Below are positions 2,568 through 6,460 of a stretch of DNA of 24,000 bases, in pieces. Source of the DNA: an uncultured Alcaligenaceae bacterium (GTDB lineage Bacteria > Planctomycetota > Planctomycetia > Gemmatales > Gemmataceae); contig CAYVRB010000019.1 of assembly GCA_964453375.1 (NCBI GenBank), positions 536-24,535 of the forward strand, in the 5' to 3' direction. The position numbers and the translations under genes were made by a program. The notes under the pieces are model-generated. The model was not told the DNA's origin, ran no database searches, and saw only the letters and a program-made list of their open reading frames with translations. Each line of letters opens with the position of its first letter. Position 1 is the first letter of the stretch.

Positions 2568-3284
2568 TTAACGCGAGGGTCGGATTGATCCAATTTTGAG
2601 AACTGGCCAGCCGCGGCCGGTCACGAGTTGGCCCGTGACGGTGACAGGCTCGCCGACGAACTCGAAGTGGTCTTCGCCGAGGGGCCGGCCGTGCGAGTCG
2701 GTGGCGAGATCATAGCGGACCCCGCCGTCGGTCTTCGACACGAACAGCGGGGGGATGCCGCCACGCAGGCAGAGGATCGCGCAGCCCTTGTGCGTCTTGC
2801 CGCCGCCGGGCTTCATCGCGCCGAGGTAGCACTTCGCATCGACGATCTCGCCCGCCAATGTCACGGGCGTGGCGACTTCTTCCATCGCGCGCTCGGCTTT
2901 CCAGTCGATGGCCTGCAAGGCGGCGTCGCCGTCGCCGAGTTCGAGCATCTTCCTGCCGTCACGCTCGATCAGCGTGCCGGTCGCACGAACGCCTTGACCG
3001 TCGAACGGCCGGAGCCGATCCTGCGCGCCGAACTTGCCGGCCTCCACGAGCAGAATCGTTTCGGTCGGCGTGCGGAGCATCGCGTAGGGTTCAGCGACGG
3101 CGATGCCGTCGAAGGAGACTTCGCGGGCGTCGTCCCAGCGGCCGGGGCCGGCGGGTCGCTGCGAGGAGGAGAGGCCGGCGGCGAGCGCGAGGCCGGCGAG
3201 GACGACGCCGACCGCGAGCGGCCGCAGGAACCGCGCGAGGGCGGGCGGCATCGGGAACCAGCCGATGTAGTGTGGATCGTTCAC
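2568..3284 (-). CDS. Hypothetical membrane-anchored/exported protein with a C-terminal Cys cluster (CYLGAMKPGGGKTHKGCAILC)
   Basis: Track ORF of 238 aa. Its GTG start overlaps the stop of the upstream gene (GTGA at 3284..3281). An alternative ATG at 3251 gives MPPALARFLRPLAVGVVLAGLALAAG, a signal or anchor sequence. No family was recognised. Confidence 0.6.
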   Translation of the reverse strand: MNDPHYIGWFPMPPALARFLRPLAVGVVLAGLALAAGLSSSQRPAGPGRWDDAREVSFDGIAVAEPYAMLRTPTETILLVEAGKFGAQDRLRPFDGQGVRATGTLIERDGRKMLELGDGDAALQAIDWKAERAMEEVATPVTLAGEIVDAKCYLGAMKPGGGKTHKGCAILCLRGGIPPLFVSKTDGGVRYDLATDSHGRPLGEDHFEFVGEPVTVTGQLVTGRGWPVLKIGSIRPSR

Positions 3285-4330
3285 GGTTTCGCTCCGGGAA
3301 GGCGGACGGGTGGGACGGGCGTGCCGGGGGGCAGCGGTTCCGGATTCAGGAAGACGCGGCGGCCCTCGAGCCGGAGGCGGAAGGTGGCGATCCGCTCGTG
3401 GAAGGGCGGCGGCGAGCAGCCGTCTTCGGGGCGGTATTCCCAGCCGTGCCAGGGGCAGCTGATGCAGCCGTCGACGATCTTGCCTTCGCCGAGGGGGCCG
3501 CGTTGGTGGGCGCAGACGTTGGTGACGGCGGAGAGACCGCCGGCGTGGCGGAAGATGGCGACGCGCTCGCCGCCCGGCGTCGCGATCACCTTGGCGCGGT
3601 CCATCGGGATGTCGTTTGCGTTCCCAACGTCGATCCAGGCGACGTCGAGCGCGACGCGCCGATCGCGGCTCCGTTCGCGCCGGCCGACGGCGAGGTGCAG
3701 CCCGGCGACGGTCGCGAAGCCGGCGACGAGGAGGATCGGGTAGATCGCCTGCGTCTCGGATTGCAGCGCCCCGAGCGCGACGTGGAGCACAATCAGCCCG
3801 TAGGCCGGGTACGCGAGCATGTGCAGCGATTTCCAGGCGCTCGGCCCGAGGGTCTTCTGCCAGAAGTCGTGGCTGGTCGCGGCCATCAGGAAGAGGATCG
3901 CGAGGGCGAGAAGCCCCAGGATTTCAAAGGGGAACGCCACGAGCGAGGAATAATTCGCGTTCGCGGTGAGCAGCGAGAGGATCGGGTTGACGAGTCCAAA
4001 TCCGTGGTAGTAGCCGAGGGCGACGGCGGCGTGGCCGAGCGCGAGGAGGAACGTGGCGACGCCGAGGTGCCGGCGGTTGTAGAGGACGGGCAGGAAGCGG
4101 CGGTCGAGCCGCGCGAGCGGGCCGATGGCGAGGGCGACGTGCAGGAGGACGAACGCCGCCGTGCCGAGGGCGCGCAAGAGCAGGATCGGGAAGCCGATGG
4201 CGTCTTCGTCGAACAGCAGGGTGCCGACGGCGAGGAAGACGGCGAGGTAGCCGGCGATGCCCGCGGCGAGGATCGCGTCGTAGACGCGCTTGTTGCGGTT
4301 CCACTTCACGGGCCGATACGTCACGCTCAT
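3281..4330 (-). CDS. Ferric-reductase-like transmembrane (di-heme b type) domain fused to a C-terminal Rieske [2Fe-2S] domain
   Basis: The N-terminal ~200 aa contain six hydrophobic helices with paired His residues (LLHVALAIGPL, RRHLGVATFLLALGHA, WKSLHMLAYPAYGLIVLHV). The C-terminus has the Rieske motif CAHQRGPLGEGKIVDGCISCPWHGW (CxH...CxxH). Confidence 0.85.
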   Translation of the reverse strand: MSVTYRPVKWNRNKRVYDAILAAGIAGYLAVFLAVGTLLFDEDAIGFPILLLRALGTAAFVLLHVALAIGPLARLDRRFLPVLYNRRHLGVATFLLALGHAAVALGYYHGFGLVNPILSLLTANANYSSLVAFPFEILGLLALAILFLMAATSHDFWQKTLGPSAWKSLHMLAYPAYGLIVLHVALGALQSETQAIYPILLVAGFATVAGLHLAVGRRERSRDRRVALDVAWIDVGNANDIPMDRAKVIATPGGERVAIFRHAGGLSAVTNVCAHQRGPLGEGKIVDGCISCPWHGWEYRPEDGCSPPPFHERIATFRLRLEGRRVFLNPEPLPPGTPVPPVRLPGAKP

Positions 4331-4419
4331 CGCGGCAACCCCCGCAGGAGAATCAGGACCACGACGGGAACGAGTGCGAACCAGAGTCGAAGGTGCCAGC
4401 GGCGGTGCGACGCGGTCAC
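4327..4419 (-). CDS. 30-aa single-TM micro-protein (not in the ORF track)
   Basis: Own translation gives GTG-ACC...: MTASHRRWHLRLWFALVPVVVLILLRGLPR*. The GTG overlaps the upstream stop (GTGA 4419..4416) and its TGA overlaps the downstream ATG (ATGA 4330..4327). 25 of 30 codons end in G/C, as in neighbouring genes. Confidence 0.4.
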   Translation of the reverse strand: MTASHRRWHLRLWFALVPVVVLILLRGLPR

Positions 4420-4622
4420 GGCGAACCTCCGATCCACTTGCGGGCGAGGACCGGCCAGAGCGCGATCGTGCCGGGCAGGATCGCGAGTCGGAAGGCGAGC
4501 GACGTTCCCCGCGCGGCCGGATCGAGGCGCGTCACGCCGCGAGCGAGGAACGGCCCGGCGAACAGCAGGCCGAGGAGCGCATAGCCTGCGATGATCGCGA
4601 GGATGGCTTCGGCGACGATCAT
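4416..4622 (-). CDS. Small (68 aa) two-helix membrane protein, function unknown
   Basis: Track ORF MIVAEAILAIIAGYALLGLLFAGPFLARG...LAILPGTIALWPVLARKW. The ATG lies 12 nt after the SDR stop and is preceded by GGAGGA. Confidence 0.6.
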   Translation of the reverse strand: MIVAEAILAIIAGYALLGLLFAGPFLARGVTRLDPAARGTSLAFRLAILPGTIALWPVLARKWIGGSP

Positions 4623-4634
4623 GGTGGATCCTCC

Positions 4635-5414
4635 TCAGTCCGGCGCGTAGACGGTGCGGCCGCCATCCACGGGTAGCAGCACGCCGGTGACGAAATCGTT
4701 GTCCAGGAACGACAGCACCGCCTGCGCGATGTTGTGCGGGCTGCCCTCGCGCTTCACGAGCGTGGCGCCGATCGCCTGGCGTTTCTCCTCCTCCGGCAGG
4801 TCCGGCGGCAGCATCACCGGGCCGGGCAGGATCGCGTTCACGCGCACGTTCGGATTTCGGCTCGCCAGCTCGACCGCGAGGCAGCGCGTGATGGCCGAGA
4901 CCGCCCCCTTGCTAGGGAAATACGCGGCGTAGTGCAGGTACGGCCGCACCTCCGCCCAGTCGCCGATGTTGACGATCAGCCCGCCTTCGGGTTGCTTCGC
5001 CATGGCGAGGCCGGCGTGCTGGCCGCAGAGGAACGTGCCGAGCGCGTTCGTGTCGAAGTGCATCCGCACGTCGTCGGCGGTGACGTCTTCGAGTTTCTTG
5101 GACTGCCAGACGGCGGCGCAGTTGACGAGCGTGTCGAGGCGTCCGAAGTCGCGGAGGACGGCGGCGACCATGGTGCGAACGGCCGTCTCGTCGGCGAGGT
5201 CGGCGCGGTACGCCCTCGCGTCGACGCCGTGCTTGCGAAGTTCGACGACGGTCTCCTCGGCCTCCGCGCCGGAGCTGCGGTAGTGGACGGCGATGGCATA
5301 GCCGCGCTGCGCGAGCGCCTCGGCCACGACCGACCCGACGCGCTTCTTGCCGCTGCCCGTCACGAGGGCGACGCGATTCGATGTCATGGTTCCTTCTCCG
5401 GGAGTGTGCGTCAT
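4635..5414 (-). CDS. Short-chain dehydrogenase/reductase (SDR), pteridine-reductase/FolM-like glycine motif
   Basis: It carries VALVTGSGKKRVG (TGxxxxxG with the KR typical of the pteridine reductase subgroup), NxAA (VNCAAV) and YxxxK (YFPSK). The likelier start is the ATG at 5387 (MTSNRVALVTG), preceded by GGAGAAGGA. Confidence 0.85.
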   Translation of the reverse strand: MTHTPGEGTMTSNRVALVTGSGKKRVGSVVAEALAQRGYAIAVHYRSSGAEAEETVVELRKHGVDARAYRADLADETAVRTMVAAVLRDFGRLDTLVNCAAVWQSKKLEDVTADDVRMHFDTNALGTFLCGQHAGLAMAKQPEGGLIVNIGDWAEVRPYLHYAAYFPSKGAVSAITRCLAVELASRNPNVRVNAILPGPVMLPPDLPEEEKRQAIGATLVKREGSPHNIAQAVLSFLDNDFVTGVLLPVDGGRTVYAPD

Positions 5415-5469
5415 AATCGTTGGTGGAGCATGTGTCGACTCCGTCGGTTCCTCTTCAGTCCGAAGGACT

Positions 5470-5663
5470 GGGAGTGCTTAGCCCAGGGCGAGCCGCTGCG
5501 GCGACGCCCTGGGAGACGGTGAATAACGCGAGGCAGTCCGAAGGACTGCGACAGATTCCGTTCCGTCGAACGTCTTTGTCTCAGCCTTTCAGGCTGGGCG
5601 TATTATGGCACCGCAACCCAGGGCGTCGTCGCCGAGCCTCCTCGCCCTGGGCTAAGCACTCCC
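5470..5663. repeat. Long inverted repeat enclosing a multi-hairpin core (MITE/REP-like element or structured RNA)
   Basis: 5470..5492 GGGAGTGCTTAGCCCAGGGCGAG is the perfect reverse complement of 5641..5663. A second perfect 12-bp pair is 5502..5513 CGACGCCCTGGG with 5617..5628. Internal hairpins lie at 5533..5549, 5559..5572 and 5582..5596. Confidence 0.7.
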
Positions 5664-5770
5664 GGGCCTTCGGCCTGAAGACCGAAGCAACCCGGGCCTT
5701 CGGCCTGAAGACCGAAGCAACCAGGCCTTCGGCCTGAAGACCGAAGCAACCAGGCCTTCGGCCTGAAGAC
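5661..5770. repeat. Tandem array, 3.7 copies of a 29-30 nt hairpin-forming unit
   Basis: The unit CCCGGGCCTTCGGCCTGAAGACCGAAGCAA occurs at 5661..5690 and 5691..5720 (identical). A copy at 5721..5749 has CCAGG at its 5' end (29 nt), and 5750..5770 is truncated. Each unit contains (C)AGGCC-TTC-GGCCT(G) and the competing CTTCGG-N8-CCGAAG stem. Confidence 0.9.
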
Positions 5771-5859
5771 AATTGATCTGAACAAATATCCCACACGTAT
5801 TTTGCGACGCGCACCCATTCTTCGCGATTGAAGGATTCGATGTCGAGGATGGGATTCGG

Positions 5860-6417
5860 TTACAGGCTCGCGGCGATCGGTTCCAGGATTTCCCGGAGGG
5901 CGTGGCGGGCGCGGTGCAGGCGCGTCTTGACGACGGACTCGGACGTGCCGAGTTTCGCCGCCGTCTCCGAGGTGTCCAACCCTTGCAGGTCGCGCAATTC
6001 GAGGATCGTGCGAAACGCCGACGGTAATCGTTCGAGGCTTTCGCGAACGCGGATCGCGGTCTCGCCCCGTTCGAGCGGTTCGGGTTCACACGGCGCGCTC
6101 CGGTCGCATCCCGCGTCGAGCGGCACGGTCCGGCGGCGGCGGTCGCTGCGCAGTTTCATCAGGCAGGCGTTCACGGCGATACGGTGCAGCCAGGTGCCGA
6201 GTCGGGCGGTCGCGTGGAACGTGCCGATCGCGCGGAAGGCCGCGAGGAACGTATCCTGCGCCGCGTCGGCGGCGCGGTCGGTATCGCCCAGATATTTGCG
6301 GGCGACGGCCATCACGGCCGGGACGTGCGCGCGGAAGAATTCGTCCTGGGCGGCGAGTTCGCCGGCGCGGAGCCGGGCGAGCAGTTCGACTTCCGAATCG
6401 AGTTCGAGGGCACACAT
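5860..6417 (-). CDS. ECF-type RNA polymerase sigma factor (sigma-70 family regions 2 and 4)
   Basis: Region 2 reads FFRAHVPAVMAVARKYLGDTDRAADAAQDTFLAAFRAIGTF...LGTWLHRIAVNACL. Region 4 reads ELRDLQGLDTSETAAKLGTSESVVKTRLHRARHALRE. The track starts at TTG 6459; ATG 6417 is preferred because the promoter-like element overlaps 6459. Confidence 0.85.
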   Translation of the reverse strand: MCALELDSEVELLARLRAGELAAQDEFFRAHVPAVMAVARKYLGDTDRAADAAQDTFLAAFRAIGTFHATARLGTWLHRIAVNACLMKLRSDRRRRTVPLDAGCDRSAPCEPEPLERGETAIRVRESLERLPSAFRTILELRDLQGLDTSETAAKLGTSESVVKTRLHRARHALREILEPIAASL

Positions 6418-6460
6418 GGTCGTCGGTTCCGGTGGGGTGAGGCGGATACTTCCCACCAAA

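Follow-up and report, generated by a model that had tools for sequence, protein, structure and literature searches.

Positions 5402-5816 of the window, that is, of the whole 24,000-nucleotide stretch of DNA analysed, very probably represent a single copy of a gene-less mobile element built of two layers, whose insertion point lies 14 nt upstream of the start codon of an SDR gene. As a type of DNA, this 415-nt element devoid of a transposase gene is ordinary selfish DNA, but the combination of its layers is unusual. The new point is its chimeric nature, a REPIN core being enclosed in ISKra4-type ends and moving with them as a single unit; no precedent for a REPIN located within DDE-transposon ends and moved as one unit was found in the literature searched. 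An earlier note on this DNA had placed a composite palindromic element at 5452-5770. The repeats are indeed found there, but the true extent of the element is 5402-5816, since an additional inverted-repeat layer (5402-5451 / 5771-5816), visible only by comparing other copies, had been missed. The features of the element and of its surroundings are the following, G001 designating one of the congeners:

4638-5387, minus strand: SDR gene, first of the downstream operon (Pfam adh_short_C2, 144.8 bits).
5393-5400, unstranded: left copy of a decayed target-site duplication, CTTCTCCG (empty site in G001).
5402-5451, plus strand: left outer arm, terminal inverted repeat of putative ISKra4-type IS origin, starting with GAGTGTGCGTCATAATCGTTGGTGG (kept in most copies).
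5452-5681, unstranded: REPIN-like core, in which two REP modules in inverted orientation enclose two central hairpins (multicopy; its halves flank Y1 genes in congeners).
5456-5513, minus strand: left REP module, Acido-Lenti-1-like, with terminal hairpin 5456-5470, linker 5471-5481 and hairpin 5482-5513 (RF01687, compensatory changes).
5533-5549, unstranded: central hairpin GCAGTCC-GAA-GGACTGC (helix 3), immediately next to the transposase gene, on its 5' side, in the copies that carry one.
5582-5596, unstranded: central hairpin CAGCCT-TTC-AGGCTG (helix 4), which follows the transposase stop codon in gene-bearing copies.
5617-5681, plus strand: right REP module, mirror of the left one, with hairpin 5617-5651, linker 5652-5662, terminal hairpin 5663-5677 and an AAGA tail.
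5661-5770, plus strand: tandem array of the right terminal hairpin, AAGA and CCGAAGCAAC, 29-30 nt repeated 3.6 times (TRF).
5771-5816, minus strand: right outer arm, a decayed terminal inverted repeat ending in GCGACGCGCACCC (aligns with the right-arm consensus of the family).
5817-5824, unstranded: right copy of the decayed target-site duplication, ATTCTTCG (duplication test across the family and empty sites).
5863-6459, minus strand: ECF sigma factor gene, located upstream of the SDR gene and sharing its strand (Pfam Sigma70_r2, Sigma70_r4_2 and Sigma70_ECF).

That the element is an insertion is proven by two empty sites. At the orthologous site of G001 (C35), only 45 nt lie between the start of the SDR gene and the stop of the ECF gene, with one single ATCTCCCG present, and a contig of the metagenome run X3 fuses position 5401 directly to position 5826, thereby providing a second empty site with its joint at 5401. 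In the window, the two copies of the duplication, CTTCTCCG and ATTCTTCG, agree at six of eight positions and are thus decayed. The insertion divided the 45-nt junction separating the ECF sigma gene from the SDR operon; the location of the repeats between these two genes, as given in the earlier note, is confirmed by Pfam for both of them. Besides, the RNA fold of 5402-5816 reaches -238.6 kcal/mol, with a z-score of -10.7 compared to shuffles, which, along with the existence of a multicopy family, places the repeat features far beyond chance. The possibility of mere local duplication noise, in the form of a single-copy, unconserved sequence of invariable copy number, is ruled out by the copy number, the target duplications and the empty sites, the sequence being multicopy and its array comprising 3.6 units in the window versus 4.7 in the copy on C80.

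The distribution of the family is both multicopy and patchy. The search of the whole genome for copies, as recommended in the earlier note, identified eight full-length copies of about 228 nt each, plus fragments, in the genome to which the window belongs (G000, a 6.18-Mb Gemmataceae MAG of 499 contigs), the closest paralogue of the window copy being C80, with 90% identity. About 20 full copies are present in each of the congeners G001 and G002, divergent or partial copies in the congeners G004 and G009, and fragments in a genome from another family (G035); no family copies were found in the seven other genomes of the same genus that were searched. All 14 copies whose flanks were checked are intergenic, and the only runs in which the element sequence occurs are DNA metagenomes of biofilter, sludge and wastewater.

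In an alignment of 36 copies, the outer layer extends for about 50 nt beyond the palindrome, and the layout of the family can be written as GGGTGWGCGTCA...GTCGAC.../TCTTCAG ... CTGAAGA/...GAAC...TGACGCACACCC, the slashes marking the borders between arms and palindrome; in the window, the tandem array separates the right arm (5771-5816) from the palindrome. Over its first 25 nt, the arm consensus is identical to the terminal inverted repeats (TIRs) of 1860-bp (1.86-kb) ISs of the ISKra4 family, compared to which the window arms are decayed, with about 20 of the 25 positions retained on the left and fewer on the right. Scanning metagenomes with the 21-nt tip of the arm retrieved nine contigs, three of them with complete 1860-bp ISs, and the REP core follows the arm tip in none of the nine. 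These 1860-bp ISs encode ISKra4-family transposases (NF033572, 306-340 bits for a cut-off of 205), and one of them (L208) is accompanied by a 9-bp duplication, GTAGTCCGG. The ISKra4 group has been described as Mutator-superfamily DDE elements (p-MULT 4) with inverted repeats of 18-39 bp ending in C, direct repeats of 8 or 9 bp, and Planctomycetes among the host phyla (Guerillot et al. 2014, PMC3942029). Among the 12 two-armed copies of the family, the flanks match at 6 or more of 8 positions in 11 cases, at 7 or more in 6 and perfectly in 2, the corresponding values for mismatched-pair controls being 17%, 4.5% and none.

The outer arms are very probably the terminal inverted repeats of an insertion sequence of the ISKra4 family. 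An ISKra4-type transposase provided in trans would have pasted the whole 415-nt unit, array included, as a MITE, and this pasting would leave a duplication of 8-9 bp. The non-autonomous MITE listed among the options of the earlier note is the right description for the unit as a whole, given its outer arms of ISKra4 type and its target duplications of 8-9 bp. No homologue of the ISKra4 transposase was detected in G000, G001 and G002 (MAGs, 93-97% complete); G004 contains one, 32% identical. Neither a 'naked' MITE made of the arms alone nor an autonomous parent was found in G000, G001, G002 and G004. An IS66 origin of the arms, prompted by their GTGAGCG tip and the 8-bp duplication, was also considered and was replaced by the ISKra4-type ISs with their identical 25-nt tip; the sole intact IS66 of the genome (C9:7335-9618, TIR GTAAGCGGTCAG...) has only about 11 nt in common with the arm.

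The inner core would be a REPIN-like doublet composed of two mirror-image REP modules and two central hairpins, each module combining a 9-bp GC stem, an 11-nt linker and a 6-bp GAA/TTC hairpin. The individual repeats reported in the earlier note were recovered: the perfect inverted repeat of 23 bp (5470-5492 / 5641-5663) and that of 12 bp (5502-5513 / 5617-5628) are present, the hairpin CAGTCC-GAA-GGACTG occurs at 5456-5470 and again within 5533-5549, and the symmetry does extend beyond the inner repeats, the 55-nt arms 5452-5506 and 5627-5681 being 85% complementary. The modules resemble the Acido-Lenti-1 motif (RF01687), with 30.7 bits (E = 8.8e-5) for the left module on the minus strand and a weak 13.8 bits for the right one on the plus strand (5645-5677). 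By score, both remain under the 37-bit gathering threshold, due to an insertion of 16-17 nt in their first hairpin. In the same genome, 15 other sites pass this threshold, always as inverted pairs about 125 nt apart, and these pairs represent a second subfamily of identical architecture, while modules of a third subfamily bracket a Y1 transposase gene on contig C81. The tetranucleotide beside the long stem is TTAG in the window, while subfamily C has ATAG and subfamily A either TTTG or TTAG; these tags resemble GTAG without being identical to it. Finally, four core-only copies of G000 (C236, C314, C2 and C277), examined by inspection, show no flanking direct repeat.

The link between this core and Y1 transposases comes from the congeners, in which a 148-aa Y1 gene lies exactly between both halves of the window's own subfamily (G002:C1, G004:C33, G004:C105 and G001:C6). 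The order within this cassette is terminal hairpin, linker, long hairpin, GCAGYC-GAA-GRCTGC hairpin, gene, and the mirror image thereof, and the outer arms are absent from the gene-bearing copies. The core in the window would be the emptied form of the cassette that houses this HUH/Y1 gene, IS200-like and of RAYT/TIRYT type, in congeners, and the REP/BIME-like option of the earlier note is thereby correct for the core, a REP doublet with its two halves found on either side of the Y1 gene in these congeners. In the transposase alignment (A1), the HUH motif (H55, H57) and Y113-I114-x-x-Q117 are invariant, and the genes flanked by modules of this subtype score 76.8-90.7 bits with Pfam Y1_Tnp. The transposase reaches 55.5 bits with the NCBIfam IS200/IS605 model NF033573 (cut-off 55) versus 20.7 bits with the RAYT model NF047646 REP_Tyr_transpos, whose cut-off of 80 is not attained, and the nearest PDB sequence is 2fyx, an IS200-like protein (E = 0.002).

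As an independent test, 20 loci of homologous transposases in other species of Planctomycetota, Verrucomicrobiota and Bacteroidota were scanned with all 4,227 Rfam models, and every one of the 24 hits at E ≤ 0.01 was RF01687. In the clearest of these loci, RF01687 is located on the minus strand just upstream and on the plus strand just downstream of the transposase gene. As judged from such sequence associations, the Acido-Lenti-1 motif behaves here as transposon-associated DNA. The present element adds an insertion-proven example in favour of reading the so-called sRNA as a hairpin module of REP/REPIN-type DNA, tied to IS200-like Y1 transposases in Planctomycetota, Verrucomicrobiota, Acidobacteriota and Bacteroidota. 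In the window's own assembly (93% complete), no intact Y1 transposase of this subtype was found by tblastn, which returned only the C81 paralogue (49-51% identical); on C310, a remnant of the last codons of the transposase gene persists beside a right half-element.

The pairing of the core was further evaluated in an alignment of 36 family copies, in the line of the covariance analysis advised by the earlier note, and the local hairpins turned out to retain their pairing by compensatory changes. More precisely, 98.3% of the cells are paired in the local hairpins, with compensatory changes in 10 pairs (42 cells), and 94.5% in the long-range palindrome, with compensatory changes in 9 pairs (27 cells), values that none of 500 shuffles attains in either case; related copies can inflate such compensatory counts, and, for the local hairpins, a slid-partner control in which relatedness is kept falls to 27-47% paired. 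Pairing reaches 99.6% in the first central hairpin (helix 3), where 2 pairs show compensatory changes; in the second one (helix 4), 4 pairs out of 6 do so. At the diagnostic stem position, the local pairing is T-A in 23 copies, G-C in 12 and C-G in one, with zero broken, whereas the long-range pairing is broken in 6 copies, including that of the window. The long-range palindrome is therefore a poorer fit than the local hairpins as the conserved structure. By analogy with TnpA of IS608 and TnpA-REP of E. coli, the Y1 enzyme would recognize the hairpins in single-stranded DNA, from which both the maintenance of the hairpins by compensatory changes and the core-only copies lacking a target duplication would follow. 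Hairpin conservation is what a single-stranded DNA transposase would require, and does not by itself indicate an RNA.

The tandem array announced in the earlier note is confirmed by TRF, which delimits it at 5665-5770 with a period of 29 nt, 3.6 copies, 97% matches and a score of 196. The final CTGAAGA of the array (5770) is the exact point at which homology with the copy on C80 is interrupted, to restart in the right arm, the array being thereby internal to the mobile unit. It consists of the right terminal hairpin of the core plus 10 nt, reiterated most likely through slippage at hairpins or repeated processing of the ends. The Logan contigs break within the repeats, and none of them covers the whole array. 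Independent arrays adjoin either end of the element at no less than nine other loci of the family (at least nine), with periods of 15, 29-34, 45, 55 and 77 nt. Arrays also adjoin the transposase genes, as a 37-nt unit repeated four times upstream of the gene in G001, and as a 77-nt unit repeated 6 times together with five consecutive CTGAAGA in G002. Terminal reiteration is thus a recurrent trait of the family.

REP/REPIN-RAYT systems, REPtrons and TIRtrons are established, and GTAG-type repeats of Planctomycetes and Verrucomicrobia are among the known REP-type systems (Bertels and Rainey 2011, PMC3116915; Nunvar 2010, PMC2817692; PMC3733652). As in REPIN/RAYT systems, the present family is made of multicopy extragenic palindromes of two inverted hairpin modules, which flank, in inverted orientation, one small HUH/Y1 transposase gene (here in congeners). 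Several module subfamilies coexist per genome, each with its own transposase, and they form clusters and tandem groupings; core-only copies seem to lack a target duplication (four copies here, by inspection), and a TAG-type tag, only GTAG-like, stands beside the long stem as TTAG or ATAG instead of GTAG. On the other hand, the module is a two-hairpin one of about 60 nt, whereas typical REPs measure 20-40 nt, and the doublet of about 230 nt comprises two extra central hairpins. The transposase, moreover, is assigned by its scores to IS200/IS605 rather than to the RAYT equivalog of NCBIfam, that of this subtype is missing from the window's own assembly, and the window copy bears foreign DDE-transposon ends along with a target duplication.

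With regard to RF01687, the two-hairpin architecture, the conserved linker starting with CUA and the UUCG-like terminal loop are shared with the described motif (PMC2864571), and other subfamilies of the same genome pass its gathering score; the window modules differ by the 16-17-nt insertion in the first hairpin and by their scores (30.7 and 13.8 bits versus 37). Acido-Lenti-1 is classed by Rfam as an sRNA, and a 2026 preprint (10.64898/2026.10.21.760802) refers to it as a family of unknown function. Compared to ISKra4-group MITEs (PMC3942029), the element has the identical 25-nt tip, the terminal C and the 8-9-bp duplications, is small and transposase-less, and has empty sites in relatives, but instead of a deleted IS it encloses an entire REPIN doublet, which belongs to an unrelated mobilisation system (HUH/Y1), together with a tandem array, and the search of the host genomes revealed no parent IS. 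A MITE of Porphyromonas gingivalis with an internal minisatellite (PMC4596501) is likewise reported to hold a variable tandem array between its inverted repeats. The IS family is another one in that case; in the present family, the repeated unit is a REP module's terminal hairpin, and both ends of family members independently bear arrays of this sort.

The combination of the two layers has a bearing on how REPIN populations can persist or spread without their RAYT. The usual description of such populations is one of vertical inheritance and of dependence on a single RAYT. A tentative proposal, which we regard as possible but not as the probable outcome, is that a REPIN doublet captured between ISKra4-type DDE ends became a chimeric MITE movable by two unrelated transposition systems, and that this capture may let the REPIN lineage keep spreading, leaving target duplications behind, in genomes lacking its own Y1 transposase. 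The window genome might be such a case: its youngest pair of copies (C19 and C80, 90% identical) is chimeric, and all that subsists of the cognate Y1 gene is a remnant.

Two other readings concern the nature of the layers themselves. The hairpin modules could be genes of a structured small RNA, the Acido-Lenti-1 sRNA, the element being then a cluster of RNA genes, and the RF01687 matches at 5456-5513 (minus strand, 30.7 bits) and 5645-5677 (plus strand), the compensatory changes in the hairpins, and the grading of the motif as 'probably RNA' on covariation by Weinberg et al. 2010 (PMC2864571), who gave it no function beyond that, all point in this direction. Yet both window modules lie under the Rfam threshold, and the covariation is equally expected if a single-stranded DNA transposase recognizes the hairpins. 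The RF01687 matches always come as inverted pairs on opposite strands and bracket a transposase gene across phyla, the element itself carries transposon ends and target duplications and is lacking at an orthologous site, and no promoter or terminator was associated with it in the sequence scan. An RNA gene cluster is accordingly highly improbable, and an sRNA function is unneeded to explain the element. Hardly better placed, and still quite improbable, is the idea that the outer arms would be an extra palindrome layer of REP type moved by the Y1 transposase, the flanking direct repeats being coincidental. It would account for the arms always occurring with the core in G000, G001 and G002, three genomes in which the search for an ISKra4 transposase was negative, and Y1 genes surrounded by double-palindromic TIRs are indeed known in Acidobacteria (Di Nocera et al. 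2013, PMC3733652). Against it, the gene-bearing copies are devoid of outer arms, the 25-nt tip is identical to the TIRs of ISKra4 ISs that have no REP core, and the duplications are enriched over the controls and of the length reported for the ISKra4 group. Y1 transposases (IS200/IS605) are not known to generate target duplications.

The remaining alternative bears on function, as the element might have been co-opted as a regulator or insulator between the ECF sigma gene and the SDR operon, acting as a terminator, an attenuator, an mRNA-stability stack or a processing site. REP/BIME elements serve as such regulatory and stability devices in E. coli mRNAs. The element lies on the transcribed strand between same-strand genes that are just 45 nt apart in G001, its RNA fold is very stable (the above-mentioned -238.6 kcal/mol), and it ends 14 nt from the SDR start with the ribosome-binding site GGAGAAGG kept. 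Nevertheless, other copies are found in unrelated contexts, and since the site is empty in G001 and in the metagenome relative, any role would be recent and incidental. Besides, the element contains no T-tract terminator in the transcribed direction, the array hairpins having no T runs behind them, and no ECF-type promoter motif (GGAAC-N14-19-CGT) within its limits; the terminator scan yielded a weak site at 5559-5572 (plus strand) and another one at 5813-5792, counted outside the element. Co-option is for these reasons unlikely, and a terminator or stability role is not required to account for the element. A candidate outward sigma-70 promoter in the left arm, TCGACA-N17-TATGAC directed toward the SDR gene, fails the consensus scan, its -10 box lacking the final T.

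Finally, the insertion of this two-layer element leads to a corrected annotation of the neighbouring gene. The ORF list had the SDR gene start at an upstream ATG (5414), which falls within the insert; translation starts in reality at 5387, where the homology with the G001 orthologue ends, and the ribosome-binding site of the gene was retained despite the insertion. The SDR operon therefore starts at 5387 and was located, before the insertion, 45 nt downstream of the ECF sigma gene, and this spacing bears on the sigma-cascade reading proposed for the neighbouring genes.

In the congener G001, whose site is empty, the ECF sigma factor gene and the SDR operon lie on the same strand with 45 nt between them (L112, G001:C35:55464-55482, versus window 5388-5862 here), and because of this short same-strand spacing the two were probably parts of a single transcription unit before the element was inserted. 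This probable shared unit touches the reading in which the neighbouring operon is 'switched on' by the sigma factor. Besides, the most upstream ATG of the SDR reading frame, at 5414, is located inside the inserted element (window 5385-5414), and both the G001 orthologue and the ribosome-binding site GGAGAAGG point to position 5387 as the real SDR start. The operon extent had been given as 2568-5414; the operon starts at 5387. A sigma-70-like site, TCGACA-18-AAGAAT (window 5817-5846, minus strand), directly adjoins the element on its right side and is directed into it; this site is not conserved at the empty site of G001.

The insertion in the window is absent from G001, unlike the copies found at G001:C22 (L036) and G002:C30 (L041), which occupy an orthologous site adjoining the same 459-aa gene. 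Occupation of this site in both congeners indicates that some insertions predate the split of the G001 and G002 species. In G002:C12:247607-248614 (L047 / L061), three full elements form a tandem series that repeats roughly every 390 nt, with short terminal-hairpin arrays between its members.

Within the window's own genome, contig C310 carries two right half-elements in direct orientation, each followed by CACGGGGA (L018:414-1539, G000:C310:3460-4585). The pair encloses an ORF with a PIN domain (Pfam PIN, 28 bits; L018:594-1073), which overlaps another of 80 aa. Just ahead of the second half-element stands what is left of the 3' end of the Y1 transposase (..GVEWDERSVWD). A toxin-antitoxin-like cassette may have taken the place of the transposase gene. 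The sole intact Y1 transposase of this clade in the genome (153 aa, 576-1037) is on C81 (L028:1-1150), where a third hairpin subfamily (GCCCCAACGGGGCGACCGACAATAGCCAGGGG...) flanks it and a short tandem array, about 2.5 copies of CCAAAACTCGACCAACGGGAAAGCTCGCCGAG, lies upstream.

Regarding other insertion sequences, an intact IS66-family element at G000:C9:7335-9618 (L202), with 26-bp TIRs beginning GTAAGCGGTCAG and a 7-8-bp duplication, CTATGGC, has no relation to the palindromic element. In ISKra4-type insertion sequences from metagenomes, the transposase gene is preceded by a DUF6788 ORF of 136-149 aa:

L207:1359-1766, minus strand, DUF6788 ORF of a metagenome ISKra4-type insertion sequence
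L209:1413-1862, minus strand, DUF6788 ORF of a metagenome ISKra4-type insertion sequence
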